Assembly: GCF_050920415.1 (NCBI RefSeq)
Contig: NZ_CP169309.1
Reading direction: 5' to 3' (one strand)
DNA: 64,000 nucleotides
Origin: Escherichia coli
GTDB lineage: Bacteria; Pseudomonadota; Gammaproteobacteria; Enterobacterales; Enterobacteriaceae
The translations under genes and the position numbers were made by a program. Numbering within the stretch: the stretch's first letter is position 1; each line of letters starts with the position of its first letter. Shown piece by piece: positions 38,023 through 62,540 of this stretch. The notes under the pieces were generated by a model that ran no database searches, was not told the DNA's origin, and worked only from the letters and a program-made list of their open reading frames with translations.

Positions 38023-38058
38023 TGACTCAACGATGGATAAATGCACTCGTTAAATAAA

Positions 38059-38085
38059 GCCCTGAGTTAATAGCTGGGGCTTTTT
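38059..38085 (+). terminator. hairpin plus T5 downstream of pR' (candidate tR')
   Basis: GCCCTG...CTGGGGC stem followed by TTTTT. Confidence 0.4.
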
Positions 38086-39601: not shown

Positions 39602-39635
39602 TGGGCGATGAAAACCAAAAAACAGGAGCAATACA

Positions 39636-40692: not shown

Positions 40693-40771
40693 ACATGGCA
40701 ACTCAAGGTTTCGACAACCCATCCAAATTCCGCGATGAATGGGATAAGCAAGCAGAAGGGAAATAATCAAT

Positions 40772-41260
40772 ATGGCAGCACCAAAGGGCAACCGATTTTG
40801 GGAGGCCCGCAGTAGTCATGGGCGAAATCCTAAATTCGAATCGCCTGAGGCGCTGTGGGCTGCTTGTTGTGAATACTTCGAGTGGGTGGAAGCTAACCCG
40901 CTATGGGAGATGAAGGCGTTCTCGTATCAGGGTGAAGTAATACAAGAGCCTATCGCCAAGATGCGAGCGATGACCATTACCGGCCTCACTCTGTTCATTG
41001 ATGTGACGCTTGAAACATGGCGCACATATCGCCTGCGAGAAGATTTATCTGAAGTCGTTACGCGAGCAGAACAGGTCATCTACGACCAGAAATTCTCTGG
41101 CGCAGCCGCTGACCTTCTCAACGCTAACATCATCGCCCGTGATTTGGGCCTCAAAGAGCAGTCGCAAGTTGAAGACGTGACACCTGATAAGGGAGATCGC
41201 GATAAGCGGCGCTCTCGTATCAAGGAGCTATTCAACCGTGGAACTGGACGCGATTCTTGA
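40772..41260 (+). CDS. terminase small subunit (P22 gp3 type)
   Basis: 162 aa, recognised as P22 gp3. Confidence 0.85.
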
Positions 41261-42737
41261 TAACCTGAGCGACGAAGAGCAAATCGAGTTGCTCGAGCTA
41301 CTCGAAGAAGAAGAGAACTACCGGAACACACACCTGCTATATGAATTTACGCCATACAGCAAGCAGCGTGAGTTCATCGACGCCGGGCATGACTATCCAG
41401 AGCGATGTTTTATGGCTGGTAACCAGCTTGGTAAGTCATTTACTGGTGCTGCTGAAGTCGCGTTTCACCTTACCGGTCGTTATCCGGGCACAAAAGGCTA
41501 TCCTGCTGATGGTAAATATGGCGGTGAGTGGAAAGGTAAGCGTTTCTATGAGCCTGTTGTCTTCTGGATTGGTGGAGAGACAAACGAGACTGTAACCAAA
41601 ACGACTCAACGCATCCTGTGCGGTCGTATCGAAGAGAATGGTGAGCCAGGCTACGGTTCCATACCGAAAGAAGACATCATTAGCTGGAAGAAGTCTCCTT
41701 TCTTTCCGAACCTTGTTGATCATCTTCTGGTTAAGCATCACACGGCTGATGGCGTTGAAGATGGCATTTCAATCTGCTACTTCAAACCATACTCGCAAGG
41801 CCGTGCTCGCTGGCAGGGTGACACAATCCACGGCGTGTGGTTTGACGAAGAGCCACCATACAGCATTTATGGCGAAGGTCTTACCCGTACCAACAAATAC
41901 GGGCAATTCTCAATTCTGACGTTTACCCCGCTGATGGGGATGTCTGACGTTGTTACCAAGTTCCTGAAGAATCCCAGCAAGTCTCAGAAAGTGGTCAACA
42001 TGACCATCTATGACGCTGAGCACTACACCGACGAGCAGAAAGAGCAAATCATCGCATCCTATCCTGAGCATGAGAGAGAGGCGCGTGCTCGCGGTATTCC
42101 TACGATGGGTAGTGGTCGAATCTTCCAGATACCGGAAGAGACGATTAAGTGTCAGCCGTTCGAGTGTCCTGATCACTTCTACGTAATTGGCGGTATGGAT
42201 TTCGGATGGGATCACCCGCAGGCGCAGGTTCAGCTTTGGTGGGATAAGGACGCAGACATAATCTACCTTTCACGCGTTTGGAAGGCGAAAGAAAAGACAG
42301 CCGTTCAGGCGTGGGGAGCTGTTAAACCATGGGCGCATAAAGTGCCAACCGCATGGCCTCATGACGGAAACCAGCACGAGAAGGGCGGCGGTGAGCAGCT
42401 CAAAGGGCAGTATGCGGACGCTGGATTTATGATGTTGCAGGAGCATGCGACATGGCCTGATGGCGGTAACGCTGTTGAGCCTGGCATCACTGAATTGCGA
42501 GACATGATGCTCGACGGTCGCTTCAAAGTATTCAACACCTGTGAGCCATTCTTTGAGGAGTTCCGCCTCTATCACCGTGATGAAAACGGGAAAATCGTCA
42601 AGCTTAACGACGACGTGCTATCCGCCGTTCGCTATGCATACATGATGCGCCGCTTCGCAAAAATGATGCGCGACATCAAAAAGCCAAAAGAGAAAAAGAT
42701 ACCAGCCCCAATCAGGCCCATCGCACGGAGAACTTAA
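41238..42737 (+). CDS. terminase large subunit (P22 gp2 type)
   Basis: 499 aa, recognised as P22 gp2. Confidence 0.9.
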
Positions 42738-44903
42738 ATGGCCGACGAAAACAGACTCAATTCCATTCTGTGTAAGTTTGACGCAGACTGGATGGCGAGC
42801 GATGAAGCCAGAACCGAGGCGACAAATGACCTGTATTTTAGCCGAGTGTCGCAATGGGATGACTGGCTATCAAACTACACCACCCTGCAATATCGCGGAC
42901 AATTCGATGTTGTTCGCCCGGTGGTCAGGAAGCTGGTCGCAGAGATGCGCCGGAACCCTATCGATGTTCTCTTCAGACCAAAAGACGGCGCTAATCCTGA
43001 TGCTGCCGATGTGCTGATGGGGATGTATCGTACTGATATGCGCCATAATACGGCAAAAATTGCCGTTAACGTTGGCGTTCGTGAGCAGATAGAGTCAGGC
43101 GTTGGTGCATGGCGTCTGGTCACGCAGTACGAAGACAACGATCCAACAAGCAACAATCAGGTAATCCGACGCCTGCCAATCCATGAAGCCTGCTCACACG
43201 TCATATGGGACGCCAACAGCAAGCAGATGGATAAGAGCGACGCTAAGCACTGCACGGTGATTAACGCCTTGTCGCGCAATGGCTGGAAAGAGTTCGCAGA
43301 GGATTACGGTATTGATCCGGACACGCTGCCATCTTTCCAGAATCCAAACGATACATGGCTGTTTCCGTGGGTATCGAATGATGTCGTCTACGTCGCTGAG
43401 TATTACGAGGTCGAAGAGAAGAAAGAGAAAGTCTTCATCTACCGCGACCCGCTGACAGGTGAGCCGGTCAGCTATTACCAGCAGGATATCAAAGACGTCA
43501 TCGACGACCTGGCTAATCGTGGATTCATTAAGGTAGCAGAGCGCAAGGTGAAGCGTCGGCGTGTGTATAAGTCGATCGTCACCTGCACGCAGATACTGAA
43601 AGACCGCGAGAAGATAGCCGGAGAGCATATTCCAATCGTTCCAGTATATGGCGAATGGTCATTCGCTGGTGACAAGGAGTGCTACGAAGGAGTGGTAAGG
43701 CTGACGAAAGACGGTCAACGCCTTCGTAACATGATCATGTCATTCAACGCCGATATTGTTGCTCGTTCACCGAAGAAGAAACCGACCTTCTTCCCTGAGC
43801 AAATCGAAGGCTACGAATACATGTACGGTGGAAATGATGACTATCCGTACTATCTGCAGAACAGGACCGATGAAAACGGCAACGACCTGCCGATTGGTCC
43901 AATCTCCTACATGGAAAACCCTGAAGTGCCGCAAGCCAACGCTTACATGCTTGAGGCTGCCACCAACGCAGTGAAAGAGGTGGCTAGTCTTGGTGTGGAT
44001 GCGCAGGCAGCAAACTCTCAGGTCGCTTTCGATACCGTCAATCAACTGAACATGCGGGCAGACCTTGAGACATACGTGTTTCAGGATAACCTTGCTACCG
44101 CAATGCGACGTGATGGCGAGATTTATGCTTCAATGGTCAATGATATTTATGACGTTCCTCGTCATGTAACGCTGACACTTGAAGATGGTAGCGAGAAAGA
44201 CGTTCAACTCTACGCGCAAGTTGTAGATTACCAGTCCGGTAATGTGGTCACACTCAACGACATTCGCGGTCGCTATGAGTGCTATACCGACGTTGGACCA
44301 TCCTTCCAGAGTATGAAGGAACAGAACCGCGCAGAGATTCAGGAGTTACTCACCAAGGTTCCGCAAGGTACTCCAGAGTTCCAGATGCTGATGTTGCAAT
44401 ACTTCACGCTGCTTGACGGTAAAGGCGTCGAGATGATGCGAGAGTACGCGAACAAGCAACTGGTGATGATGTGGCTGAAGAAACCAGAAACACCTGAAGA
44501 GATGGAGATGGTGCAACAGGCGCAACAGCAGCCGCAGCAGCCATCAGCAGAGCAAATTCAGGCGCAGGGTATCCTTCTGCAAGGTCAGGCTGAATTGATC
44601 AAGGCAGAGAACCAACAGGCGCAGATTCAGGTTGAAGCCGCCAAGGTTGAAGCCCAAAACCAACTCAACGCCGCGAAGATTGCAGAAATCTTCAACAATA
44701 TGGACCTCGACAAGCAGGCAGAACTGCGTGAGTACCTCAAGCTCGTAGGTCAATTCCAGCAACAGCGCAGCAAAGATGCTCGTGCTAACGCTGAGCTGCT
44801 TCTTAAAGATGCAGACCAGACTCATTCACAACGCATGGATTTCGCGAATCTTATGCGTCAAGTTCAAATCCCCTCCGGCGGAGTAGCCGAGACACCTCAA
44901 TAA
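42738..44903 (+). CDS. portal protein (P22 gp1 type)
   Basis: 721 aa, recognised as P22 portal. Confidence 0.9.
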
Positions 44904-44916
44904 GAGAGAGTTAACC

Positions 44917-45828
44917 ATGGACCAAACCACCGACATTCAGGCTTCTGAAGAATTAACCCTGCCCGGCAATCATGCAGCGGCATCTGCTGATGGCTTAGTT
45001 GTCGATAATGCCAACGACAGCGCAGGTCAGGAAGAAGGCTTTGAGATTGTCCTGAAAGACGATGAGAAACCAAAACAAGACCCGGCAACTAATGCTGAAT
45101 TTGCCCGTCGCCGCATCGAACGCAAACGCCAGCGTGAGCTTGAGCAGCAGATGGAAGCGGTTAAGCGTGGAGAGTTGCCGGAGCACCTGCGGGTGAACCC
45201 TGAGTTACCAAAACAACCAGACCCTAACGATTATCTTTCCGAAGATGCACTGGCTAAGTACGACTATGACCAGAGCCGCGCACTGGCTGCCTTCCAGCAG
45301 GCAAACAGTGAATGGCAGATCAAGGCCATGGACGCACGAAGCCAGGCTGTCGCCGAGCAGGGTCGCAAAACTCAGGAGTTCACCCAGCAATCAGCGCAAT
45401 ACGTCGAGGCAGCCCGTAAGCACTACGACGCAGCGGAAAAGCTCAATATCCCTGACTATCAGGAGAAAGAGGATGCATTCATGCAACTGGTGCCGCCAGC
45501 AGTCGGTGCCGACATCATGCGCCTCTTCCCGGAGAAATCCGCTGCTCTCATGTATCACCTTGGTGCTAATCCTGAGAAAACACGCCAGTTACTGGCGATG
45601 GACGGGCAATCCGCGCTGATTGAACTCACTCGACTGTCAGAACGTTTAACTCTCAAGCCTCGAGCCAAGTCTGTTTCAGAAGCCCCGTTACCTGATGAAC
45701 CCATTCAGGGACACGCTGTTGCTGCAAATATCTCTGCGATTGAAAAGCAGATGGAAGCGGCAGCAAACAAAGGTGATGTAGAGACGTACCGCAAGCTTAA
45801 GGCGCAACTGAATAAAGGAATTCGATAA
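44917..45828 (+). CDS. scaffolding protein (P22 gp8 type)
   Basis: 303 aa, recognised as P22 scaffold. Confidence 0.85.
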
Positions 45829-47123
45829 TGGCATTAAATGAAGGTCAACTGGTCACATATGCTCTGGATGAAATCATCGAAACCGTCCAGAACCTGACGC
45901 CAATGGCGTCCAAAGTGACAAAATACACCCCTCCGGCAGAATCCATGCAACGTTCAAGCAACACCGTGTGGATGCCTGTTGAGCAGGAAGCGCCAACTCA
46001 GACAGGCTGGGATTTAACTGGCAACGCAACCGGGATTCTGGAACTCTCCGTGAAATGCAACATGGGCGATCCGGATAACGATTTCTTCGAGCTTCGTGCA
46101 GATGACCTGCGTGATGAGCGTTCTTACCGTCGCCGCATCCAGGCATCCGCCAAAAAACTGGCGAATAACATTGAGTCAGCAATTGCCAAACAGGCAACCG
46201 AAATGGGCTCACTTGTTGTTCACGATACCCGCGCAATTGGTCCATCTACTGGCCTGTCTGGCTGGGATTTTGTGTCTGATGCAGAGCGCCTGATGTTCTC
46301 CCGTGAGCTAAACCGCGATATGGGCATCAGTTACTTCCTGAACCCTGACGATTACCGCAAAGCAGGCCGCAACCTGGTAGATGGTGACATCTTTGGGCGC
46401 GTTCCTGAAGAAGCGTATCGTAACGGTACTATTCAGCGTCAGATTGCTGGCTTTGATGAAATTCTTCGCTCACCGAAACTTCCGGCAGTTACCAAGTCAA
46501 CCGCTACTGGTGTAACTGTTTCTGGTGCGCAGAAGTTTAAGCCGCAGGCATACACCCTTGATACCGATGGTAACAAAGAGAACGTCGACAACCGTGTTGC
46601 AACGGTGACCGTATCCTCCACCACCGGATTTAAGCGCGGCGACAAAATCAGCTTCACTGGTGTGAAATTCCTATCTCAGATGGCGAAGAACGTGCTGACT
46701 GATGATGCTACTTTCTCAATCACCCGAGTGATCGATAGTACTCACATCGAAATCACGCCGAAGCCGATTGCGCTGGATGACTCGTCACTGACAAAAGAAG
46801 AGAAGGCTTACGCTAACGTAAACACCTCTCTTGCTGATGCCACTCCGGTAAACGTTCTGAACGTGGCAACAACCACCGCTAACGTGTTCTGGGCTGATGA
46901 CTCAATCCGCCTGCTGTCTCAGCCGATTCCGGTAACCCATGAACTGTTTGCTGGCATGAAAACTTCTTCCTTCAGCATTCCAGGTATTGGTGTTAACGGC
47001 ATCTTCGCAACGCAGGGTGATATCAACACTCTGTCTGGCAAGTGCCGTATTGCTGTGTGGTATTCAGCATGTGCTGTACGACCAGAGGCAATTGGTGTTG
47101 GTCTGCCTAACCAGACTGCGTGA
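45828..47123 (+). CDS. major coat protein (P22 gp5 type)
   Basis: 431 aa, recognised as P22 coat. Confidence 0.9.
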
Positions 47124-47130
47124 TAACCAG

Positions 47131-47154
47131 AGGGAGCTTCGGCTCCCTTTTTTA
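47131..47154 (+). terminator. intrinsic terminator after coat gene
   Basis: AGGGAGC-TTCG-GCTCCCT hairpin followed by TTTTTT. Confidence 0.6.
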
Positions 47155-47167
47155 TCTGGAGACAAGC

Positions 47168-47405
<238 letters not shown>

Positions 47406-47428
<23 letters not shown>

Positions 47429-47906
47429 TTTAGTTCTTGCGGCATTACGTAAGCTCGGTGTGGCATCAAATGCCACGTTAACCGATGTCGAACCGCAGTC
47501 TATGGAAGACGGCGTCAACGACCTTGAAATGATGATGGCTGAATGGCTTGGCGGTGATGTGTCACCTGGTATCAACGTTGGCTACATTTTCGCTGATGCA
47601 GATGTCGCTCCAGATCCGGGCGATGAGCACGGTTTATCAAATAACGCTATCAATGCTGTCATTTTCAACCTTGCCTGCCGCATTGCACCGGATTATGCGC
47701 TGGAAGCGCCTGCAAAACTTATAACCACTGCCAGATACGGGAAAGAGCGACTCGTCAAACTGTCTGCAATGGACAGAGCAAAAGCCGCTAAATGTAAGTC
47801 CGGTTATCCAAACCGTATGCCTGTTGGTAGCGGTAACCAGTTGGCGAAGTGGAACGGTTGGAATTACTTCCACCGAAAGGAACCTTGCGATAACGGGAGC
47901 GAATAA
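47406..47906 (+). CDS. tail accessory / head completion protein (P22 gp4 type)
   Basis: From [33 protein letters not shown], matching P22 gp4; the ORF-track upstream extension is repeat-derived. Confidence 0.75.
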
Positions 47907-49324
47907 TGCCGATTCAGCAACTTCCGCTCATGAAAGGTGTCGGCAAAGATTTCCGAAACGCCGACTATATCGACTATCTGCCAGTGAATATGTTGGCTAC
48001 ACCCAAAGAAATCCTCAACAGCAGCGGATATCTTCGCTCATTCCCGGGCATTGCCAAACGCTCTGATGTGAATGGTGTATCGCGCGGTGTCGAGTACAAC
48101 ATGGCGCAGAATGCTGTTTATCGCGTTTGCGGTGGCAAGCTGTACAAAGGAGAAAGTGAAGTCGGTGACGTTGACGGAAGTGGTCGTGTATCAATGGCGC
48201 ATGGTCGGACATCACAGGCGATAGGCGTTAATGGTCAACTGGTCGAGTATCGCTATGATGGCACGGTTAAAACCGTCTCAAACTGGCCTACAGACAGCGG
48301 ATTCACACAGTACGAGTTAGGTTCAGTTCGCGACATTACGCGCTTACGTGGGCGTTATGCGTGGTCAAAAGACGGAACTGATTCATGGTTTATCACTGAC
48401 CCTGAAGACGAATCGCACCCTGACCGATACAGTGCACAATATCGCGCAGAATCGCAGCCGGACGGCATCATCGGTATCGGGACATGGCGAGACTTCATCG
48501 TCTGCTTTGGTTCTTCGACGATTGAGTATTTTTCCCTGACTGGTGCAACCACCGTTGGTTCTGCTTTGTATGTCGCCCAGCCATCGCTGATGGTGCAGAA
48601 AGGCATTGCCGGGACTTACTGCAAAACGCCATTCGCTGATTCTTATGCGTTTATCAGCAATCCGGCAACAGGTGCGCCGTCTGTGTATATCATTGGCTCC
48701 GGTCAGGTGTCACCAATCGCCAGCGCGAGCATTGAGAAAATTCTCCGCTCCTACACTGCTGATGAACTGGCTGATGGTGTGATGGAGTCTCTGCGATTTG
48801 ATGCGCATGAGCTGCTGATTATCCATCTTCCGCGCCATGTTCTGGTGTACGACGCATCTTCAAGCGCCAATGGTCCGCAATGGTGTGTGCTGAAAACAGG
48901 CCTGTATGACGATGTGTACCGCGCTATCGACTTCATTTACGAAGGCAATCAGATAACGTGCGGCGATAAGCTGGAATCCGTGACCGGGAAATTGCAGTTC
49001 GATATCAGCAGTCAGTACGACAAGCAACAGGAACACCTGCTGTTTACTCCTTTGTTCAAAGCAGATAACGCCAGAGTTTTCGACCTTGAAGTTGAATCTT
49101 CAACTGGCGTTGCGCAGTACGCCGACCGCCTGTTCCTCTCTGCAACCACTGACGGCATAAATTACGGTCGTGAGCAGATGATTGAGCAGAATGAACCGTT
49201 CGTTTACGACAAACGCGTTTTGTGGAAGCGTGTCGGGCGCATCAGGAAAAATGTCGGCTTCAAATTGCGCGTTATCACGAAGTCACCTGTAACTCTGTCT
49301 GGCGCTCAGATAAGGATTGAGTAA
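47906..49324 (+). CDS. tail accessory protein (P22 gp10 type)
   Basis: 472 aa, recognised as P22 gp10. Confidence 0.85.
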
Positions 49325-50172
49325 TGGCGGATTCGAATCTCAATGTGCCGGTAATCATCCAGGCTACGCGGCTCGATACATCAGTCCTTCCACGCAATAT
49401 CTTCTCGCAGTCGTATCTGCTGTACGTTATCGCGCAAGGTACTGATGTTGGTAACGTGGCTAACAAGGCCAACGAGGCCGGACAGGGCGCTTATGATGCA
49501 CAGGTCAGGAACGATGAGCAGGATGTGATTCTCGCTGACCATGAGCAGCGAATTTCTGCTGCGGAAGCAACGCTTGTTAATCATGAGGAGCGAATCAGCC
49601 AGGCAGAATCAACTCTTCAGGAACATGAAACGCGAATCGCTCAGAATGAAAGCGATATTGCGTCGCTTGATACCAGAGTTCAGTCGCTGGAATCGCAGGT
49701 TTCAGATCATGAATCGCGCATTGATGCTCTGGATTATGCAACCACGCGCAAGAAGTCAGAGGTTGTTTACTCTGGCGTATCAGTAACCATTCCGACAGCG
49801 CCGACCAACCTTGTTAGCCTACTGAAAACGCTCACGCCGTCATCCGGCTCGTTGACACCATTCTTCGACACCGTTAACAACAAGATGGTTGTGTTCAACG
49901 AGAACAAAACCTTGTTCTTCAAGCTGTCGATCGTCGGGACGTGGCCCAGCGGAACCGCCAACAGGTCAATGCAACTAAGCTTTTCCGGCTCTGTTCCTGA
50001 CACACTGGTAAGCAGTCGCAACTCGGCGACAACAACCGATAACATCCTGTTAGCTACGTTCTTCAGCGTGGATAAAGACGGCTTTCTTGCCACAAATGGC
50101 AGTACGTTAACCATTCAGTCAAATGGTGCGGCGTTTACTGCCACAACCATCAAAATCATTGCGGAGCAGTGA
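49324..50172 (+). CDS. tail needle (P22 gp26 type, Sf6-like long form)
   Basis: 282 aa; conserved gp26 N-terminus, heptad repeats, divergent C-terminal domain. Confidence 0.8.
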
Positions 50173-50627
50173 TGATTCAGTTCAAACCAACGCGAAACAT
50201 CGACTTGATCGAAGCAGTCGGAAATCACCCTGACATTATTGCCGGGAGCAACAACGGTGATGGATACGACTACAAACCTGATTGCCGTTACTTTGAGGTG
50301 AACGTGCACGGGCAGTTCGGCGGCATTGTTTACTATCAGGAGATTCAGCCGCTGACATTCGATTGCCACGCCATGTACCTGCCAGAGATTCGCGGCTTCA
50401 GCAAGGAAATTGGGCTGGCGTTCTGGCGATACATTCTGACTAACACCACCGTCCAGTGTGTCACATCGTTCGCCGCACGCAAATTCCGCCACGGTCAGAT
50501 GTACTGCGCAATGATTGGCCTTAAGCGTGTAGGAACCATCAAGAAATACTTCAAAGGCGTGGATGACGTGACTTTTTACAGCGCCACACGCGAAGAACTA
50601 ATCGACTTCCTGAATCACGGGAGATAG
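50169..50627 (+). CDS. virion protein at the P22 gp14 position
   Basis: 152 aa; assignment by synteny only. Confidence 0.5.
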
Positions 50628-50629
50628 CC

Positions 50630-51322
50630 ATGTTATATGCATTTAAGCTGGGCAGAAAACTGCGCGGCGAGGAACCTTATTGCCCTGAAAAAGGCGGGAA
50701 AGGTGGCAGCTCTGATAAAAGCGCAAAGTATGCAGCAGAAGCTCAGAAGTATGCTGCAGATCTGCAAAATCAGCAGTGGCAGACGATCATGAAAAACCTT
50801 GCTCCGTTCACGCCTCTTGCGGAGCAGTATGTTAACCAGCTTCAGAACCTTTCCAGTTTAGAAGGTCAGGGGCAGGCACTTAATCAGTATTACAACTCTC
50901 AGCAGTATAAAGACCTTGCAGGTCAGGCTCGTTACCAGAGTCTTGCTGCTGCGGAGGCTACGGGAGGACTTGGTTCGACAGCCACAAGCAATCAACTGGC
51001 TACGATCGCGCCTACACTCGGTCAGTCTTGGTTATCAAACCAGATGAGCAATTACAACAATCTGGCAAACGTTGGGCTTGGTGCGCTGCAAGGTCAGGCA
51101 AACGCCGGGCAGACGTACGCCAACAACATGAGCAGCATTGCACAGCAAAGCGCAGCACTTGCCGCTGCTAATGCCAATAAACCATCAAGTCTTCAGACTG
51201 CAATTAGCGGTGGCACGTCTGGTGCGATTGCCGGTGCAGGTCTTGCCAGCCTTTTGGGAACATCAACGCCTTGGGGCGCTGGCATTGGTGCTGGTATCGG
51301 ATTGCTTGGCTCGTTGTTTTAA
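50630..51322 (+). CDS. ejection protein (P22 gp7 type)
   Basis: 230 aa; N-terminus MLYAF.LGRKLRGEEP; synteny. Confidence 0.65.
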   Translation: MLYAFKLGRKLRGEEPYCPEKGGKGGSSDKSAKYAAEAQKYAADLQNQQWQTIMKNLAPFTPLAEQYVNQLQNLSSLEGQGQALNQYYNSQQYKDLAGQARYQSLAAAEATGGLGSTATSNQLATIAPTLGQSWLSNQMSNYNNLANVGLGALQGQANAGQTYANNMSSIAQQSAALAAANANKPSSLQTAISGGTSGAIAGAGLASLLGTSTPWGAGIGAGIGLLGSLF

Positions 51323-51331
51323 GGGGTAATC

Positions 51332-52738
51332 ATGGCTACTTGGCAAGGAACAAACGGCGGATTGTTGGCTGGTATCGGCGGCGTCAACTCAAACGCTCCG
51401 AGCGTAAATGACATCGGCAATACGCTTCAGCTTATCAGGCAGAACAATGATATTGAGCGTTCAGGCGCTAACAATGTTGGGCTGACTGCTTTGCAAGGCC
51501 TTTCAGGTATTGCGGGGGTGTTTCAGCAGGAAAAGCAGGCTCAGCGGCAGAAAGAATTTCAGCAGGCATACGCTAATGCTTATGCGTCTGGTGATCGCGG
51601 TGCTTTGCGTCAGTTGGCTACTCAATATCCAGACCAGATTGAATCCGTTCGTAAAGGCATGGGATTCATTGATGAAGACCAGCGTAATTCTATCGGCACC
51701 TTAGCGGCTGGCGCTCGCCTTGCGGCATCGTCTCCAGAAGCGATGCAATCATGGCTGCAAAACAACGCCAAGGAACTGACTCGCGTAGGTGTTGACCCTA
51801 ACAACGTTGCTCAGATGTATCAGCAGAATCCTTCAGGATTTGGTGAGTTTGTTGATCACCTTGGGATGGCTGCTCTTGGTCCGATTGATTACTTCAATGT
51901 TCAGGACAAGATGGCTGGTCGTGAAATTGACCGAGGCAGGCTGGCAGAGACAATCCGCAGCAATCAGGCTGGCGAGGCACTTCAGGCGAGAGGGCAAAAC
52001 CTTTCCTATCAGTCAGCAATGACTGGACACAATATCGCAGCGCAACGCTTGGCTCTGGATCAGCAAGAGTTCGGGTTTAAGATGCAGCAAGCGCAGGAAA
52101 AGGCTCAGCAGTTGATTAGCGAAGCACCTAAGCTGTCAGTAAACATGGAAAAAGGCATCGAGACGGCTGTAAACAATGCCACAGCATCATCAAACTCAGC
52201 CAATTCCATGAGTGCGCTTGCTCAACAGTTCAGAGCAGAAAAACCAACGACAGGTTTGTTCGGTAACGCACAGAACATGTTCGCAAAACTTACCGGAAGC
52301 GATACGACATTGCGTGATTTGCGCATTCGCCAAAATGCCCTTGTTAACAGTCAGGTTCTTAAATTCCTACCTCCCGGCCCAGCAACGGATAAAGACGTTG
52401 AGATCGTTCGACAGGGTGCGCCAACTGACATGGATAACCCTGAGACGGTCGCAAGATGGCTTGATGCAATGGCAAACCTTGAGCGACGAAACGCGCAGTT
52501 TAATGAGTTTAAAGCCGAGTGGATGAGCGCGAATGGCAACCCTGGACAATCGCGTAATGGCGGTCAGATATTGGGGTTGGATGTTAAAAAAGGTGAATCA
52601 TTGGGGAGTGCCGTTAAGCGGTATATGTCAATGAATACTGACGCAGCGCCAGCACAAGATTCGACACCTTCAGGAGAACCACGGAATCAGGTTGGATCAT
52701 ATACCTCAAAATCAGGCATTCAATTTACGGTGGAATGA
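51332..52738 (+). CDS. ejection protein (P22 gp20 type)
   Basis: 468 aa; synteny and size. Confidence 0.65.
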   Translation: MATWQGTNGGLLAGIGGVNSNAPSVNDIGNTLQLIRQNNDIERSGANNVGLTALQGLSGIAGVFQQEKQAQRQKEFQQAYANAYASGDRGALRQLATQYPDQIESVRKGMGFIDEDQRNSIGTLAAGARLAASSPEAMQSWLQNNAKELTRVGVDPNNVAQMYQQNPSGFGEFVDHLGMAALGPIDYFNVQDKMAGREIDRGRLAETIRSNQAGEALQARGQNLSYQSAMTGHNIAAQRLALDQQEFGFKMQQAQEKAQQLISEAPKLSVNMEKGIETAVNNATASSNSANSMSALAQQFRAEKPTTGLFGNAQNMFAKLTGSDTTLRDLRIRQNALVNSQVLKFLPPGPATDKDVEIVRQGAPTDMDNPETVARWLDAMANLERRNAQFNEFKAEWMSANGNPGQSRNGGQILGLDVKKGESLGSAVKRYMSMNTDAAPAQDSTPSGEPRNQVGSYTSKSGIQFTVE

Positions 52739-54741
52739 TGAAAGTAACTGCAAACGGTAAGACATTTACCTTCCCTGATGGTACGAGCACGGAAGATATT
52801 GGCACCGCCATTGATGAGTATTTTGCTGGTCAGTCAGCACCAACACAACAAGGTGTTCAGCAATCGCCAGCAGACAACTCACTTGCATCAGGATATGCAC
52901 AGCTTGCCACTCAGCAGAAGGAAGGACTAGATCGCTCTGCTGAGCAAGGGGCTGTTTTAGGTGCTGCAATGCGCGATGCCGTTACCGGTGAAAGCCGAAT
53001 GACACCAGAAATGGAGAGACTGCAAAATGTTGGGTCTGCTCCAGAGCTTAATAGCTTAAGCACTGATGCGCTGCGTGCTGGATTGGGGCAGCTATTTGGT
53101 TCCGACGCTTCACAGGAGAAAATACTGCAAAGTATTGGCGGGAAAATCCGGAAGGATGAGAAGGGAAATTCCATAGTCACCCTTCCTTCAGGGGAATATG
53201 CACTTAACAAGCCTGGTTTGTCACCGCAGGATATAACGTCATTCTTGGCAAATGCTCTTGCATTCACTCCAGCAGGTAGAGCTGCGTCTGTTGTAGGTGC
53301 AACACTAAAATCAGGCGCTACTGATTTAGCTTTACAGGGTGCCACTAAGATCGCTGGCGGTGAGAATGTTAATCCAGTTCAAACTGCAATTTCTGCTGGT
53401 CTTGGTGGGGTACTGAAGGGTGTAGAAAACACCGCAAGCGCAGTGTCTCGTTCTGCTATGGGTAAGATTGCTCCTGAAAAACAAGCTCAGATTGACTTTG
53501 CCAAGCAGAACAACTTGCCACTGATGACAACAGATCTTGTGGAACCGGGAACAAATATTGGTAAGCAAGCACGAGCTATGGCTGAGCGAATCCCAATAGC
53601 CGGAACAGGTGGGATAAGAAATGCACAGCAAAAGGCCAGGGAAGATTTAGTTAGAACTTTTAGCGATAATGTTGGTGGAATATCTGACGCACAACTTTAC
53701 CAATCAGCTACTCGTGGTCAGCAGCAATTTATTCAGGCTGCTGGCAAGCGGTACGACAGGATCATCAGTTTGATGGGGGATACTCCTGTTGACATCACTG
53801 GAACAGTGAAAGCAATTGATGAGCAGATTTCCAAGTTAACTCGCCCAGGAGTATCGCAAGATCGCTCAGCTGTTTCTGTCCTTCAACAGTTTAGAAATGA
53901 CATCACCAGCGGTCCAAATAACCTGCAATTAGCTAGAGAAAACCGTACAAACTTACGTAAGCGCTTTATGGCAGCACCTGACGAGGTCGATAGAGATACG
54001 CTGGAGAAAGCTGCGCAGTCTGTTTATAACGCATACACAACAGACATGAAAAAAGCGGTTGGCGCAAAACTAGGTGCGAAGGAAGCGCAAAACATGTCGC
54101 GTGTTGATCGTTCTTGGGCAAAGTTCAACGACATGATGAGCAATACACGTGTCCAAAAAGCTATTCAGAGTGGTAAAACAACGCCAGAAGATGTCACTAA
54201 ACTAGTATTCAGCCAAAGCCCAGCGGAAAGGGCGCAACTTTATCGATTGCTTGATGATAGTGGGCGTCAAAATGCTAGAGCAGCACTTGTTCAGCGTGCA
54301 ATGGATAAGGCGACAAGCGATTCAGGAAAGCTTAGCGTTGAGAAGTTTATTAATGAAATGAAAAGGAATCGGAAGCAGGCTGAGACGTTCTTCAGAGGAG
54401 AGCATGGGAAACAGCTTGATGGGATAATGAAATATCTTGATTCCACTAGACAGGCAGCTACTGCTGCCGCAAGCCCACTAACAGGGCAAATGGTAGCTGG
54501 TCCAGCAGCGCTGATAACAGCTCTTGCGTCTGTTACAAATCCAATGTTTGCAAAAGTTGCGGCAGTTGGAGCTGGTATCGGTATGGCTGGCAGGGGCTAT
54601 GAGTCACGCGCGATGAGGAACGCATTACTAAAGTTAGCAAACACGCCAAAAGGAAGTACTGCTTATGATAGAGCGATCAGACGGGTATCTGAAACTCTTA
54701 CACCTCTAATTCAGGCTTCAAGTGAGAAAGCCCAGCAGTAA
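52735..54741 (+). CDS. ejection protein (P22 gp16 type)
   Basis: 668 aa; synteny and size. Confidence 0.65.
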   Translation: MMKVTANGKTFTFPDGTSTEDIGTAIDEYFAGQSAPTQQGVQQSPADNSLASGYAQLATQQKEGLDRSAEQGAVLGAAMRDAVTGESRMTPEMERLQNVGSAPELNSLSTDALRAGLGQLFGSDASQEKILQSIGGKIRKDEKGNSIVTLPSGEYALNKPGLSPQDITSFLANALAFTPAGRAASVVGATLKSGATDLALQGATKIAGGENVNPVQTAISAGLGGVLKGVENTASAVSRSAMGKIAPEKQAQIDFAKQNNLPLMTTDLVEPGTNIGKQARAMAERIPIAGTGGIRNAQQKAREDLVRTFSDNVGGISDAQLYQSATRGQQQFIQAAGKRYDRIISLMGDTPVDITGTVKAIDEQISKLTRPGVSQDRSAVSVLQQFRNDITSGPNNLQLARENRTNLRKRFMAAPDEVDRDTLEKAAQSVYNAYTTDMKKAVGAKLGAKEAQNMSRVDRSWAKFNDMMSNTRVQKAIQSGKTTPEDVTKLVFSQSPAERAQLYRLLDDSGRQNARAALVQRAMDKATSDSGKLSVEKFINEMKRNRKQAETFFRGEHGKQLDGIMKYLDSTRQAATAAASPLTGQMVAGPAALITALASVTNPMFAKVAAVGAGIGMAGRGYESRAMRNALLKLANTPKGSTAYDRAIRRVSETLTPLIQASSEKAQQ

Positions 54742-54749
54742 AAAGTTGG

Positions 54750-55070
54750 TTAGCGGTTGATGGTTGCTTTTTTCGGGTCATACCATCTCGGCCATTCTTT
54801 CAGGAATGGGAATGAGTCGGGAGCGTGGTTCTTTTTGTACGATTTAAGCAGCCTTAACCGCTCTATCGCACACTCATAAACCTCTTGTTGCCCTGTAGTC
54901 ATCTCGGTCCATGAAAGGTGATCCATTGATAAGACAACGTTTTCAGCTTCTTTTATGAGGGCGTTTTTATTTCTCACCGCAGCAGCATGGCTGACAGAGC
55001 AATCCTGCCATATTCTTAAAAGCCAAATAGCTAAGCAGATAAAAAAAATGGTAGATAGCGATATATACAC
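54750..55070 (-). CDS. small membrane protein, N-terminal TM helix (GTG start after AAGGAGG)
   Basis: 106 aa from GTG at 55070 with strong SD 5 nt upstream; the longer ORF to 55286 overlaps the divergent gene. Confidence 0.4.
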   Translation of the reverse strand: MYISLSTIFFICLAIWLLRIWQDCSVSHAAAVRNKNALIKEAENVVLSMDHLSWTEMTTGQQEVYECAIERLRLLKSYKKNHAPDSFPFLKEWPRWYDPKKATINR

Positions 55071-55100
55071 ACCAACCTCCTTAGTTTTGAGCAGGATACC

Positions 55101-55466
55101 ATGAAAAAAGTTAACATTGGAAACGTACCAAAGATGCTCGTACCGCTCTTTGAGAGCGGTACAATTGTGTTTTGTAGAGACTTTCCAGAATGGCAACGCC
55201 TGCATCAAAAACTTGGCGTTGACGTGCATGACTCGGACGCCAACGGAGCGTCTCATACAATGAGTAGCGAGAATGGTGTTTTGCATGTGATAGGCGTGTT
55301 CAATGGCAAACTATCTACTATTGCCCATGAGTGCGCTCACATGGCATTCGATATCTGCTCAAGGGTAGGTGTTGATGTTGAACCAGGAAGAGCCAACGAG
55401 ACTTACTGCTACTTAATGAGCAGGCTTGTTGAGTTCTGCGAGCGACATATCAAAAAGCCGGAGTGA
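55101..55466 (+). CDS. small protein with HExxH motif (HECAH), candidate minimal zinc metallopeptidase
   Basis: 121 aa; motif read from translation; divergent from the membrane-protein gene. Confidence 0.45.
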   Translation: MKKVNIGNVPKMLVPLFESGTIVFCRDFPEWQRLHQKLGVDVHDSDANGASHTMSSENGVLHVIGVFNGKLSTIAHECAHMAFDICSRVGVDVEPGRANETYCYLMSRLVEFCERHIKKPE

Positions 55467-55479
55467 CCCGGCTTGATTA

Positions 55480-55660
55480 TTACTTTTTGCTGTCTGGAGT
55501 TCGCTTATCCAATACCCAGCCATGACCTGGCTTTGTTGTTGGTGGAAGCCTTTCGTTGTCCTTGACGGTGGCAAAATTGTCTTTCTTACCGCCGCGTGGG
55601 CCAACTTCTTGGTATATTCCGCCGTTTTTTCCTGTGTTTTCACCTGGTTTTTTCGCCATG
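55480..55660 (-). CDS. small hydrophilic protein, 60 aa
   Basis: ATG with GAGG-like SD; MAKKPGENTGKNGGIYQEVGPRGGKK. Confidence 0.35.
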
Positions 55661-55758
55661 ATATACCTCAACATACACCCGTTATTGGGCGATTAAATAT
55701 TGATCTCATTTTATAAGTAGTCAATATGGCCCAGGTAAATGCAAAAATTAACTCACCG

Positions 55759-56010
55759 TCAGGTGGTTTTTTTGTACAAATCCTTCAGCGTATCAAACAC
55801 CATCTTCTTAACAAGATCTGACTGCTCATCAGCGAGTCGTTCTGCATCGTCACGATATCCAGTCACAGGCGATGGTTTTGATAGAGCATCTTGGACGATT
55901 TGCAACAATTCTGAGTTCATTGATCTACCATTTGACTCTGCTCTGTATTTTAATTTTTCTCTTACTTCCAAAGGCATGCGGAAGTTAAAGTGCGGATCGT
56001 CTCTAGCCAT
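55759..56010 (-). CDS. mnt: Mnt repressor (ribbon-helix-helix)
   Basis: 83 aa, near-identical to remembered P22 Mnt. Confidence 0.85.
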   Translation of the reverse strand: MARDDPHFNFRMPLEVREKLKYRAESNGRSMNSELLQIVQDALSKPSPVTGYRDDAERLADEQSDLVKKMVFDTLKDLYKKTT

Positions 56011-56033
56011 GCCATCACTCCAAGTTAGTATCT

Positions 56034-56297
56034 TTAACTTTCGTCTTTATTGTTGCCATACATGCATTTCAACTTCTCAACATCATGTTCAAGATCTATC
56101 AATCGTGATGCTATAGTTGCAAGGTCTAGTGCTTGAATGTGTTTATTTTTTTCGGTCCATGCTTCAAGTGCCGCGACCATCTCAGCATTTAATGAACGAG
56201 AATTAGCCTCAGCCAGTTCAATAAGACGTTCCTTTATCTCTACAGGAAGCCTCAGATTCACTTGAGGGTTTTTGTACTTACGATCAGACATCGGCAC
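56034..56297 (-). CDS. ribbon-helix-helix protein (Arc/MetJ-like) upstream of mnt
   Basis: N-terminal VNLRLPVEIKERLIELAEANSRSLNAEMVAALEAW RHH pattern. Confidence 0.5.
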   Translation of the reverse strand: MPMSDRKYKNPQVNLRLPVEIKERLIELAEANSRSLNAEMVAALEAWTEKNKHIQALDLATIASRLIDLEHDVEKLKCMYGNNKDES

Positions 56298-56396
56298 ATC
56301 CTGAATAATTTTTTACCACAGGATATGTAGGTATCTATTGACTATCAATGCGTACCTAAATACTATGTATGCGTACCACATACAACGGAGGATGCA

Positions 56397-56537
56397 ATGA
56401 AGGTAAAAACACTGCGTATGCCAGAGAAGTTAGAAAAAATCCTTGAAGAGAAAGCAAAGGAAGAGTGTCGCTCATTTAGCGCAGAAGTAATTAAACGGGT
56501 GATGGACAGCCTGAAGAGAGATGGGGTGGCGATATGA
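56397..56537 (+). CDS. Arc-like ribbon-helix-helix repressor
   Basis: 46-aa ORF with GGAGG SD; divergent from mnt; upstream of the ant-position gene. Confidence 0.55.
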   Translation: MKVKTLRMPEKLEKILEEKAKEECRSFSAEVIKRVMDSLKRDGVAI

Positions 56538-57439
56538 ATAAAGAAGATGGCTTTAAGTGCTCCTTCTGCTGAAAGCCTCAGCATGAATGTGCAATGTTGA
56601 TTCGCGCTAAAGCAGAGATATTTATCTGTAATGGTTGTGTATCTCTTTGCGTTGAAGCGATGGGGAAAGAGTTAAATTCTAGAAAAACAATGTTAGATGT
56701 GAGCATAAAACAGTGAAGCCCCAACTGCGGTAACAGTCAGGGCTTCGGTATCAACAAAACTTACGAGGTATTATTGATATGTCAAGCTTAGCAAAGTCAA
56801 CTGTAAATTGCACTAATAGCATCATCATTTCTGACGTCAAGATTCATATGGATTCAGAGGGTCGTTACTCGCTTAATGACCTTCATGTAGCGTCTGGAAA
56901 GGAGGAAAAACATCAGCCAGCTTTCTTCATGCGTAGAAATGAAACTATTGAATTGATTAATGAAATTTTTAATTCTGCGGATATGCAGAATAAGAATCCC
57001 GTCATTTCTAAGAAAGGTAGATATGGTGGAACATACGTGTGCAAGGAGCTTGTTTACTCCTACGCCATGTGGATTAGCGCAGCATTTGCGCTGAAGGTTA
57101 TCCGCGCATATGACGCAATGGTTACTGCCACACAAGAGAGGAAGGCTATTGGCGGTAAAACTTCAGTAGCTGAACGCACGCCGCTACGCGATGCAGTAAA
57201 CATGCTGGTAGGAAAGAAAGGACTTCGCTATGACGATGCATACAATATGGTTCATCAGCGTTTTGGTATTGACAGCATTGATGAACTTTCAATTGAACAA
57301 ATCCCGCTGGCCGTAGAGTACATCCACAGGGTAGTGCTTGAAGGTGAGTAGACTGGCCCCCTGAATCTCCAGACAACCAGTATCACTTAAATAAGTGATA
57401 GTCTTAATACTAGTTTTTAGACTAGTCATTGGAGAACAG

Positions 57440-57805
57440 ATGATTGATGTCTTAGGGCCGGAGAAACGCAGACGGCGTACCACACAGGAAAAGATCGCAA
57501 TTGTTCAGCAGAGCTTTGAACCGGGGATGACGGTCTCCCTCGTTGCCCGGCAACATGGTGTAGCAGCCAGCCAGTTATTTCTCTGGCGTAAGCAATACCA
57601 GGAAGGAAGTCTTACTGCTGTCGCCGCCGGAGAACAGGTTGTTCCTGCCTCTGAACTTGCTGCCGCCATGAAGCAGATTAAAGAACTCCAGCGCCTGCTC
57701 GGCAAGAAAACGATGGAAAATGAACTCCTCAAAGAAGCCGTTGAATATGGACGGGCAAAAAAGTGGATAGCGCACGCGCCCTTATTGCCCGGGGATGGGG
57801 AGTAA
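57440..57805 (+). CDS. insC: IS2 transposase OrfA
   Basis: [26 protein letters not shown] recognised. Confidence 0.9.
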
Positions 57806-58668
57806 GCTTAGTCAGCCGTTGTCTCCGGGTGTCGCGTGCGCAGTTGCACGTCATTCTCAGACGAACCGATGACTGGATGGATGGCCGCCGCAGTCGTCAC
57901 ACTGATGATACGGATGTGCTTCTCCGTATACACCATGTTATCGGAGAGCTGCCCACGTATGGTTATCGTCGGGTATGGGCGCTGCTTCGCAGACAGGCAG
58001 AACTTGATGGTATGCCTGCGATCAATGCCAAACGTGTTTACCGGATCATGCGCCAGAATGCGCTGTTGCTTGAGCGAAAACCTGCTGTACCGCCATCGAA
58101 ACGGGCACATACAGGCAGAGTGGCCGTGAAAGAAAGCAATCAGCGATGGTGCTCTGACGGGTTCGAGTTCTGCTGTGATAACGGAGAGAGACTGCGTGTC
58201 ACGTTCGCGCTGGACTGCTGTGATCGTGAGGCACTGCACTGGGCGGTGACTACTGGCGGCTTCAACAGTGAAACAGTACAGGACGTCATGCTGGGAGCGG
58301 TGGAACGCCGCTTCGGCGACGATCTTCCGTCGTCTCCAGTGGAGTGGCTGACGGATAATGGTTCATGCTACCGGGCTAATGAAACACGCCAGTTCGCCCG
58401 GATGTTGGGACTTGAACCGAAGAACACGGCGGTGCGGAGTCCGGAGAGTAACGGAATAGCAGAGAGCTTCGTGAAAACGATAAAGCGTGACTACATCAGT
58501 ATCATGCCCAAACCAGACGGGTTAACGGCAGCAAAGAACCTTGCAGAGGCGTTCGAGCATTATAACGAATGGCATCCGCATAGTGCGCTGGGTTATCGCT
58601 CGCCACGGGAATATCTGCGGCAGCGGGCTTGTAATGGGTTAAGTGATAACAGATGTCTGGAAATATAG
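57763..58668 (+). CDS. insD: IS2 transposase OrfB (DDE domain)
   Basis: 301 aa recognised as IS2 InsD. Confidence 0.9.
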
Positions 58669-59105
58669 GGGCAAATCCAGTGAGTTCATTGGCAAACAAG
58701 AGAAGAAAACCAACGAGCTTTCTGCAAAAGAAGCAAACAGCCTTGTATGGTTATGGGATTATGCCAACCGCTCACAGGCATTATTCCGCGAATTGTATCC
58801 GGCATTAAAACAAATTCAATCGAACTATTCCGGCAGATGTCATGACTGCGGTTATGAGTTCTCCCGTATTATCGATATAGCGAGAGACGTTTTAATTAAT
58901 CACACACGAGATGTTGATATCAATGAGCCAGACGGACCAACGAATCTTTCCGCATGGATGAGACTTAAGAATAAAGAATTACCTCCTTCAGTACATAATT
59001 ACTGACAGATAACCAACGCAACGACCCAGCTTCGGCTGGGTTTTTTTATGCCCAAAATTCACCGTAGCCATGCTGCGGCGATTCCTTGTATCTGGAGCAA
59101 ATTAA

Positions 59106-61063
59106 ATGACAGACATTACAGCCAATGTTGTAGTGAGCATGCCTTCGCAACTCTTTACTATGGCCCGCTCTTTTAAAGCCGTAGCTAATGGTAAAATTTA
59201 TATCGGTAAAATTGACACTGACCCGGTAAATCCTGAAAACCAGATTCAGGTTTATGTAGAGAACGAAGACGGCTCTCACGTTCCTGTTTCGCAACCAATC
59301 ATCATTAACGCTGCTGGATATCCGGTATATAACGGACAGATTGCCAAATTCGTAACTGTGCAAGGCCATTCTATGGCTGTATATGATGCGTATGGTGCAC
59401 AGCAGTTCTATTTTCCTAATGTGCTGAAGTATGACCCTGATCAGTTTAAGCAGCAGTTAGAAAGCGATGCTGATGGAATGGGAGATGCATTAGTTACAGT
59501 TAAACAACCGTACACTGGTGCTACTTCTATTTCACAGCACATTAAAAATTCACAGGCTATAAGTGTTATTGATTTTGGCGCTACAATTGACGGAACGCTT
59601 CACCCTTTAAGCGAGATATTTTCAACACTATCAGCCGCTCAGATGGTATATCCATTTGTTTCATCTCTATCTCAATCTGTTGATTATGCTGCGCTTCAGT
59701 CCGCATGTAACACGGGAAAAACAGTGCTTATTCCAAAGGGAACTGGTTACTATAATTCAACTATTTTTCTGAAAAACTCCGTCAGGATTGTTGGAGAGGG
59801 AACTGATACAATAAATAGAGCGCAATCATTTATGTCTATTGTTGGTAATATTTCAGCCTTTGCTTTAGATCAAGGTGATTCACTATCGACAAAAATGATT
59901 CAGATTTTTATTGATGGTCTTTATATTTTCTATGATCCAGGAACCACACCAACGAATCCTGAAGATGATGGTGGGAAAATTGCATTTAATTTCTACTCGA
60001 CAATTCCAAATTCAACAAGCTTGGAAATGTCTGAAATTAAAAACTGTACAGTTCATGGTGCATGGTCATGCTTTAATGATCAGACTGGCACATACTTGAC
60101 AAAACTTACGAATGTGTGGGCCAGAAACTGCCATAATGGTTTTACAAAAGGAACTGGCACTACCATTCTGATGGAAAGATGTTATACATCTGGATGTATA
60201 TCACCATATCAGTTTGGTTCTGTCTTTGCAGCTACAATGATTAACTGTGCCATGGATGGATCAAATATTTCGTTAAACGCAGGTTCGCTTGGTGGGGCTG
60301 GCGTTCATGTTCTTAACACACATAGTTTTAACATTATTGGTTTTGATGCGGAGGGTAACACCATCTCTACAGATGGTTATGGAGAGGCAGCACTATTCCA
60401 TTTCGAAAATAGTAGTGGTGGCATTTCTGGCCTGACTGCACATCAGAACAGCATGCGAAGTGTTGCGCCAAGTGATGCTGGTGTAGTTTCCTACATCAGG
60501 GCGTCAGGTAGCAGCGATGTAAAATTGAGTCATCAGAAGATGATTTATCTGACACCAACACAGTTGCATATACTGGGTCTGGGTATCCCATCATGCTACA
60601 TGCAACTGACACAGCTAAAATAAGCGTCTTTAATAGCAGATTCAGGGCGACTACCACTGGTACCCCTGTCTTAAGTACGCTAAGTACTGGTGATGTATCA
60701 TGGTATGACTGCCCTAAAAAAACAGGACTTATCGTAGATGGTTATTCACAAATAACATCTAAGGAAGGATTGCAAACATCATGCTTCTATACCAGTAAAG
60801 GCTCTACTGCTGTTGCTGAAAATACTCCGACAACACTTTTCTCTCTACCAGATTCGCAAGGTACTTACATTATTAGCGTATGGGGGGCTGGAAGCGGAGA
60901 AAATTACGCATCTACACAACTGGCAATGTATGATGGAGATAAGCTAATTCTTGTTGCGTTAAAAATAGCAGCATTTCTTAGTTTTTCAGCAACAGGGAGA
61001 ATTGTAACCATTACAAGCCAGGGCACAGGCACTTTTAATTGGACCTACACAAAAATAGGTTAA
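59106..61063 (+). pseudogene. tailspike (P22 gp9-type head-binding N-terminus) split into two overlapping ORFs, 59106-60623 and 60593-61063; apparent frameshift
   Basis: N-terminus [34 protein letters not shown] matches P22 tailspike head-binding domain; second frame is open from 60512 with no SD-preceded start. Confidence 0.6.
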
Positions 61064-61206
61064 TATATTTTGAACTATCTACGTTATTTAGTTCGTTAAG
61101 TAGACATAGGGCGGTTATCTCTGTTGCTGGTGAGAAAAAAATGAGAAACACAAAGCTTTGCACTGTATTGCAAGGCTTTGCGCTCTTCGATAGTGGTTAA
61201 GGTGGA

Positions 61207-62400
61207 TCACTCCACCTTTTCATCAATCCAATCCGCCCACCACTGCATCATTTCTCTGCGCTTATCGAGATACTGAGCATGGTTGTAAATTCCGCGCACA
61301 GATCCGCCGTTGGCATGTGCCAGTTGCACTTCAATAGCATCAGCAGGCCATTCGTGCTCGTTCATAATCGTGCTGAATTCATGCCTGAATCCGTGACCGC
61401 TTTCCAGACCTTCATAGCCGATTTGTTTGATCACAAGCAGTACCGCGTTCTCGCAGATTGGCTTCTTCTTATCGTTGCGCCCGGCAAAAACAAACTCTGA
61501 TACTGGTTTGGTGATTGAGCTTAGCGTAGTGAGAAGTTCAACCACCTGGTCCGACATCGGGACAACATGAATCTTGCGTCCCTTCATCACACTGGCGTCG
61601 ATAGTGATAATCCTGTTTTCAAAATCGACGTTCTTCCATTGCATGGAACGAAGCTCTTTCGTTCTTAGGGCTGTGTAGCGTAAAACTTTGGTCGCAATGA
61701 GCGATACGATACTTCCTGAAAATGTTGCCAGTGCTTTGTTGAATGCAGGGATCTGGTCTGCAGGAAGAAACGGGAAGTTCTTCTTGCGGTATCCCTTCAT
61801 GGCGTCAGCAAGGTCAGGTGCCGGGTTATATTTAGCCCTTCCGGTGACAATAGCGTAACGGAAAACCTCGCCGCATCTTCTGCGTGCTTTGTTGGCTCGC
61901 TCCATTGCACCGCGATCTTCAAATCTGCGGATTACTTCCAGAAGTTGCATCGGCTCAATATCCTGAATTTCAAGGCTGCCGATGATAGGTAAAATGTCGT
62001 CATCAAACATTTTGGCAAGTTCAGTTGCATAGCCTACTGACCAGACTTGCTTCTTGTGCTCGTACCATTCCTTGTAAATCGCACTAAAGGAATTGTTGTT
62101 AGACGAAGCCTTTTTCGCCTTTACCGGATCGATACCAACCGAGATGTCTTTCCTCGCAGTCCATGCTTTATCCCTTGCCTCCTGCAAAGTCATAAGCGGA
62201 TATTTTCCGACGGTCAGGATTTTCTCCTTACCGTCAATCTTGTAGCGAAGCTGCCATACCTTTTTCCCTGACACAGGGACATAAAGGTACAGGCCATTAC
62301 CATCGAGAAGGCGGTATGGTTTTTCTTTCGGCTTTGCTGCTTCAATCTGCTTAACGGTGAGCATGGGTAAAAATCCGGTGGGTAAAATTATTTTATCCAC
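61207..62400 (-). CDS. intS: tyrosine integrase (IntS / KplE1-Sf6 type); likely start is the internal ATG at 62364
   Basis: C-terminal catalytic signature R..HGFRHEFST..Y; adjacent to argW. Confidence 0.9.
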   Translation of the reverse strand: MDKIILPTGFLPMLTVKQIEAAKPKEKPYRLLDGNGLYLYVPVSGKKVWQLRYKIDGKEKILTVGKYPLMTLQEARDKAWTARKDISVGIDPVKAKKASSNNNSFSAIYKEWYEHKKQVWSVGYATELAKMFDDDILPIIGSLEIQDIEPMQLLEVIRRFEDRGAMERANKARRRCGEVFRYAIVTGRAKYNPAPDLADAMKGYRKKNFPFLPADQIPAFNKALATFSGSIVSLIATKVLRYTALRTKELRSMQWKNVDFENRIITIDASVMKGRKIHVVPMSDQVVELLTTLSSITKPVSEFVFAGRNDKKKPICENAVLLVIKQIGYEGLESGHGFRHEFSTIMNEHEWPADAIEVQLAHANGGSVRGIYNHAQYLDKRREMMQWWADWIDEKVE

Positions 62401-62520
62401 TTTTTACCCGTCATGGTGTGCGGCTGTCAACGATCTGACGCGAACCATGACGAACTGTGAATCTACGGAAGGCTTGATATTCAGGGGATTTTGCGGACTG
62501 GTACGGATGGGAGCGAACTG

Positions 62521-62540
62521 ATAAATGGTGTCCCCTGCAG
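62521..62540. repeat. prophage att core, integrase/argW-proximal copy
   Basis: Exact repeat of 22364-22383. Confidence 0.8.

Follow-up and report, generated by a model that had tools for sequence, protein, structure and literature searches.

When an apparent tailspike gene of a prophage is found in two overlapping reading frames, a simple question has to be answered before any biology is built on it: are these two genes, one gene that is read in two frames, or one gene that is broken, and, in the last case, was the break made in the cell or in the assembly? This question is raised by positions 59106-61063 of a 64,000-nucleotide stretch of Escherichia coli DNA (contig NZ_CP169309.1 of the assembly GCF_050920415.1; the whole stretch is referred to below as the window). 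A first-pass annotation of this DNA had described a P22-type tailspike frame that stops after 505 codons at 60623, followed by a protein-like second frame that is open between 60512 and 61063 and lacks a ribosome-binding site. These coordinates proved to be exact. According to the ORF table, ORF1 (59106..60623, plus strand) starts with ATG, encodes 505 aa, and terminates at the TAA 60621-60623; translation from 60500 shows that the second frame is closed by a TAG at 60509-60511 and, from 60512 on, has no stop until the TAA that ends at 61063. The first ATG of this second frame, at 60593, lies 30 nt ahead of the ORF1 stop and defines a mechanically called ORF2 (60593..61063, plus strand) of 156 aa. 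The second frame is, indeed, protein-like: given the base composition of this DNA (40% G+C), a run of 184 stop-free codons would arise by chance with a probability of ~5e-6, the longest open off-frame runs within ORF1 being 66 and 35 codons, and ORF2 matches the C-terminal end, and only that end, of the protein family phrog_8649 (positions 589-743 of 743, i.e. the last 155). The missing ribosome-binding site also stood, inasmuch as no AGGAGG-like (Shine-Dalgarno) sequence is seen by eye in the 20 nt before ATG 60593, and a promoter/terminator consensus scan yielded no promoter-like sites between 59927 and 61040. The same scan, which relies on consensus only, placed a terminator-like hairpin with a T-run at 59023..59042 (plus strand), between ant and the start of the tailspike gene. 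In the public record, the locus is represented by two CDSs, WP_432780934.1/XVM74075.1 and WP_432780935.1/XVM74076.1.

Comparison with intact relatives demonstrates that the two ORFs are one P22-type tailspike gene split by one missing T at 60520. The orthologue in ETEC1730, which is annotated as a single 652-aa CDS, shows 97.6% DNA identity to the window over the full length, and the pairwise alignment contains 48 substitutions and exactly one indel (1958 nt in the window vs 1959 nt in the orthologue); this sole indel, the missing T, falls within the interval 60512-60623, where a frameshift had been predicted. At 60519..60521 (plus strand), the window reads G-T-A (GATGTAAAATTGAG) as against GATGTTAAAATTGAG in the intact form, one T of a TT pair being gone, so that GATG-T-AAAATT in the window corresponds to GATGTTAAAATT in every relative, and the codons GTT AAA ATT are turned into GTA AAA TTG. 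When the two forms of the site are distinguished as GTTAAAATT (T present) and GTAAAATT (T deleted), the former is the reading in three independent relatives, namely, ETEC1730, FT130, and the Logan contig L006. A megablast search of complete E. coli genomes identified five records that cover all 1958 nt of the query and are 97.6% identical to it; in four of these, the match extends over 1959 nt and carries a single CDS annotation, 'phage head-binding domain-containing protein'. In the fifth record, PEC422 (L003 3001-6295), the tailspike gene, located in a prophage at the argW site, is interrupted by an IS3-family element, which is a second, unrelated, and independent inactivation of this tailspike gene.

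Restoration of the T yields a product of 652 aa, the same length as in the intact relatives and close to the ~650 aa that had been estimated for the combined frames. Codons 1-473 of ORF1 (up to 60524) are native, whereas codons 474-505 specify 32 out-of-frame residues; the 3' part of the gene continues in the -1 frame at 60524..61063 (plus strand), with native codons 474-652 plus the stop and no internal stops, and ORF2 equals native residues 497-652. In this repaired 3' part, 175 of the 179 residues are identical to those of P0031, a 751-aa 'phage tail protein' considered below, and there are no stops. A 122-member cluster (at 90%), represented on dozens of contigs, contains the intact 652-aa form, and its short members are labelled partial by their sources; among the listed intact alleles, those nearest to the repaired protein of the window deviate from it at 6-7 residues. 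A homologue search retrieved 124 proteins with the receptor-binding part, attached to several N-terminal adaptors (PF09008, PF18668, the 751-aa type, and lateral-fibre types of ~842 aa). In an alignment of 31 sequences, 30 of them homologues and with four different adaptors among them, every one of the 30 homologues is continuous across the frameshift site, and residues S470, D479, Y489, and G493, on either side of the site, are invariant, which gives no support to the alternative of an independent C-terminal gene. As in a frameshift pseudogene, both pieces are collinear with one orthologue, and the indel separating them is not a multiple of 3.

The identity of the protein is clear at its N-terminus, where the proposed P22-type head-binding (particle-attachment) domain was recovered by Pfam (PF09008; residues 1-113, 59106..59444, plus strand) with an E-value of 1.7e-67 and full coverage of the profile; this domain also has sequence matches in the PDB to the N-domains of Sf6 gp14 and P22 gp9. 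A PDB sequence search found no match to a solved structure past residue 257, and the intact orthologue shows an end-to-end match to phrog_8649, a family of 'unknown function'; as to binding and cleavage of O-antigen or capsule polysaccharide, no close homologue that has been characterised was found. A pectate-lyase-like Pfam match was weak and below the cutoff. In the AF2 model, the repaired protein shows a pLDDT of ~90 over residues 150-652 and consists mostly of short beta-strands from ~205 to the C-terminus, with strand 471-475 located at the frame break; a compact beta domain is predicted, in this model of the monomer, at ~540-652. In a Foldseek search of the PDB, phage tailspikes account for all of the best matches (Sf6 gp14 with an E-value of 3e-16, followed by P22, phi297, LKA1, and HK620), with a probability of 1.00 but with low TM scores (0.2-0.36), which are low because the N-domain is poorly modelled. 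As judged from the model, the body of the protein would be a right-handed parallel beta-helix, a predicted receptor-binding/depolymerase part, followed by a C-terminal beta-sandwich. The head-binding domain, the fold, and the place of the gene in the genome all assign the protein to the P22-type tailspike family.

The genomic position is that of the last late gene of a 40.2-kb P22-like prophage, inserted at tRNA-Arg (argW) and spanning 22363..62540, including an IS2. The order of genes is terS, terL, portal, scaffold, coat, gp4, gp10, needle, gp7, gp20, and gp16, followed by arc-like genes, ant, and the tailspike gene, and then by intS and tRNA-Arg(CCT); the tailspike gene comes after the immI (mnt/arc/ant) region, as is typical of P22-type phages. 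The integrase gene intS (61207..62400, minus strand) converges on the tailspike gene, and its product shares 99.2% identity with the IntS of 0H26 (385 aa); the order tailspike-intS-tRNA-Arg is found in 0H26 and PEC422 as well. The ends of the element could be established from MFDS1022581, a near-clonal complete genome in which the argW site is empty: its flanks match the window at 18804-22383 and 62520-64000 with 100% identity and no gaps, and, since these two matches overlap, they define the 21-bp att direct repeat (left copy, 22363-22383; right copy, 62520..62540, which overlaps the 3' end of tRNA-Arg(CCT) at 62526-62600) and thereby the limits of the prophage. Positions 1-21000 of the window are likewise 100% identical to MFDS1022581, giving 23.9 kb of flank in total without a single indel, and the core genes in 1-22 kb are all intact. 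Next to argW, the window carries a sucrose (csc) cluster at 16955-21933 (cscA, a kinase, and an oligosaccharide MFS transporter), whereas the argW neighbours in 0H26 are dsdX and dsdC.

Two further lesions are present in the same prophage. A complete IS2 of 1331 bp (57349..58679, plus strand), with its InsC/InsD ORFs, sits in ant just upstream of the tailspike gene, flanked by a 5-bp target duplication (GTGAG; 57344-57348 and 58680-58684), and splits ant into an N-terminal part (~56779-57348) and a C-terminal part (58680-59005). The rusA gene (36785-37143) is frameshifted by a deletion near 36845, where the window has G4 and 0H26 and EC2257 have G5 (AGACGGGGGAGTC), so that residues 1-22 and 11-120 of RusA match two different frames; because all listed complete E. 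coli matches are one base longer than the query, this deletion, too, appears to be private. About 50 other prophage genes for which a match was found are full-length and single-frame.

What would the missing base mean for the tailspike? As the gene is written, translation would give native residues 1-473 followed by 32 unrelated ones and a stop at 60623, and the last 179 native residues would not be made in frame. The break would fall within the predicted beta-helix, at strand 471-475, with the loss of the last coils and of the whole C-terminal domain. In P22, trimer assembly begins from the C-terminal domain (PMC3357383); therefore, by analogy, the truncated chain is expected not to trimerise, and induced particles would be without a functional tailspike of their own. 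Loss of function of the truncated tailspike is, accordingly to this analogy with P22, what we would expect, and we infer that the deletion is present in the DNA and not just in the assembly. If the deletion is real, the prophage would release, at most, particles that lack their own tailspike and would be effectively a dead end unless complemented.

Whether the base was lost in the prophage or in the assembly can be judged only from the balance of several observations. We favour, with somewhat better than even confidence, a genuine inactivating mutation, of very recent origin, in a prophage already gathering lesions. The assembly shows no indels against an independent genome, MFDS1022581, over the 23.9 kb of flanking chromosome; the lost base comes from a TT pair and not from a long homopolymer; the IS2 insertion in ant is a structurally clear lesion of the same prophage; and the ~50 other prophage genes are single-frame and full-length. 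The competing possibility that the DNA of the strain contains an intact 652-aa gene, the T being missing only in the deposited sequence, has to be taken seriously even if we give it the smaller share of our belief. The deletion is private: no independent assembly carries it, the truncated products of 505 and 156 aa are on record from one E. coli contig only (5,311,592 bp), and exact-sequence look-ups found neither the truncated product nor the repaired 652-aa protein in any other assembly. The second private single-base deletion, located in rusA of this prophage and affecting a G5 homopolymer, is a classic signature of a long-read consensus error and, as such, speaks against a real mutation; an unpolished long-read assembly could contain two 1-nt deletions of this kind in 64 kb. 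Furthermore, the missing T adjoins an A4 run in A/T-rich DNA, and the empty argW site with its 100% identical flanks in the related strain indicates that the prophage may have arrived recently, and a newly arrived prophage would have depended on a functional tailspike. The wholly undecayed downstream frame has been counted in favour of an artefact but also fits a very young mutation. Against a consensus error stand, on the other hand, the indel-free flanks, the intact state of the core genes in 1-22 kb and of all other compared prophage genes, and the atypical character of TT -> T as a homopolymer error; in addition, the exact repaired 652-aa protein is on record from no read-derived assembly. 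The two gauges of assembly quality, flank identity and the rusA deletion, disagree with each other and are uninformative in statistical terms. For the record, the practical consequence depends on the outcome: if the mutation is genuine, as we favour, WP_432780934.1 and WP_432780935.1 should be annotated as one frameshifted tailspike pseudogene, and if the missing base is a consensus error, they should be one intact gene.

The remaining readings assume that the interrupted gene still works, and each of them fares poorly. Leaky or programmed -1 frameshifting, whereby the tRNA-Lys on AAA (60522-60524) would slip to A-AA (60521-60523) so that some full-length tailspike is made, has an attractive feature in that GTA AAA TTG, when re-read as GT AAA ATT G, leads straight back into the native residues (DVK-IESS...), the next codons being ATT GAG; there is also a hairpin after the site (60526-60547), and few tailspike trimers are required per virion, which carries six of them. 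Nevertheless, we deem this reading highly improbable: there are no X XXY YYZ heptamers in 60512-60623, where just two A4 runs are found; the hairpin begins 1-2 nt past the site, too close as compared to the usual spacing of 5-9 nt; and its fold energy is ordinary (z -1.9 for the downstream 100 nt, with 11 of 200 shuffles being as good). The downstream sequence is identical in relatives that stay in frame and, hence, did not evolve as a stimulator, and two-frame use is seen in none of the >120 homologues, with no split among the full-length matches listed and all 30 aligned ones being single-frame. An Rfam scan of 58600-62700 detected no frameshift elements, the tRNA being the sole match. Given the lack of a heptamer, the ordinary and too closely spaced hairpin, and the absence of a two-frame homologue and of an Rfam element, programmed -1 frameshifting was rejected; at best, there could be a very low-rate background slippage that leaves traces of the native protein.

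The possibility that ORF1 and ORF2 are both functional, the first as a truncated tailspike and the second as a C-terminal protein (e.g. a detachable chaperone or trimerisation module) that is translated separately and assembles with it in trans, appears to us to be extremely unlikely and the least credible of all. Re-initiation is conceivable given that ATG 60593 precedes the ORF1 stop by 30 nt, and C-terminal intramolecular chaperone domains are carried by the K1F and phi29 tailspikes (PMC3357383). Yet ORF2 has neither a visible Shine-Dalgarno sequence nor a promoter-like site, and has no Pfam match, the chaperone families included; native residues 474-496 would be absent from both products, with 32 unrelated residues in their place; the split is inside the predicted beta-helix strands and not at a domain border; and there are no split homologues, the short cluster members being called partial by their own sources. 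An independent ORF2 was, therefore, rejected, as it lacks expression signals and matches solely the C-terminal end of full-length phrog_8649. A different way for the element to survive, namely, that the deletion is real and the prophage is still transmissible thanks to background -1 slippage or to complementation in trans by co-resident P0121 or P0031, is also very unlikely in our estimation. Should it hold, the broken gene would be a tolerated loss among co-resident prophages that share tailspike modules. We retain the recent inactivating mutation as the preferred reading.

The mention of co-resident prophages calls for a closer look at the receptor-binding part of the gene. This part (59461-61063) has a G+C content of 40.0%, as compared to 47.5% in the prophage and 46.5% in the window, which fits a horizontally exchanged cassette. 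The DNA that encodes P0031 (in L006) is ~99.6% identical to the window over ~59,600-61,000 and is, thus, closer to it than the P22-type orthologue; in the patch 60592-60670, the window shows 15 differences to ETEC1730 and none to L006. The loci of this module are ~59,600-61,000 in the window, L006:6001-8256, and L002:3285-5540. P0031 is recorded on a 5,311,592-bp contig, as are the truncated products of the window, and the similarity of the modules suggests that co-resident prophages recently exchanged the module or underwent gene conversion. A second P22-type tailspike is P0121 (639 aa; L008:3001-4920 and similar loci), whose gene is followed by an acyltransferase gene. Its head-binding domain is 95% identical to that of the window (132/139), and its receptor-binding part is ~47% identical; the cluster of P0121 includes a 5,311,592-bp contig, and the source genome may harbor a second P22-like prophage supplying tailspikes in trans. 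More generally, the receptor-binding module (phrog_8649) is a widely swapped cassette, joined to N-terminal adaptors of at least four kinds, and its swapping here is a routine example of tailspike modularity.

Among known systems, the closest counterparts are the orthologues in ETEC1730, ETEC1703, ETEC1717, and ETEC1718 (WP_213834158.1, 652 aa), which have the same domain order and reside in the same kind of prophage but read GTT AAA ATT in a single ORF, where the window reads GTA AAA TTG and is split. The 751-aa 'phage tail protein' (FT130 WP_178969917.1; P0031) shares the receptor-binding module of the window but has a different N-terminal adaptor, devoid of the head-binding domain, and different gene neighbours, namely, an acyltransferase gene followed by holin and lysis genes; unlike the window gene, it is intact. 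With the tailspikes of the P22-like podoviruses (P22 gp9, Sf6 gp14, HK620 gp9, and the CUS-3 endosialidase), the protein, 652 aa long as such a tailspike would be, shares the predicted beta-helix body and the position of the last late gene, and the head-binding domain of Sf6 gp14 is ~90% identical to that of the window in the Foldseek alignment to the Sf6 N-domain. The window protein differs from these tailspikes in that its residues ~120-652 belong to phrog_8649, with no solved sequence relative past residue 257, and in that its gene is broken by a 1-nt deletion. Finally, the frameshift pseudogenes of degrading prophages likewise carry a single-base indel along with further lesions in the element, here the IS2 in ant and the rusA deletion; as distinct from them, the tailspike gene of the window shows no secondary decay downstream of the indel, and the genes for structural proteins, lysis, and integration in its prophage otherwise seem intact. 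Whether it stems from an ordinary frameshift lesion or from a consensus error, the broken frame is a feature of an already well-known kind.
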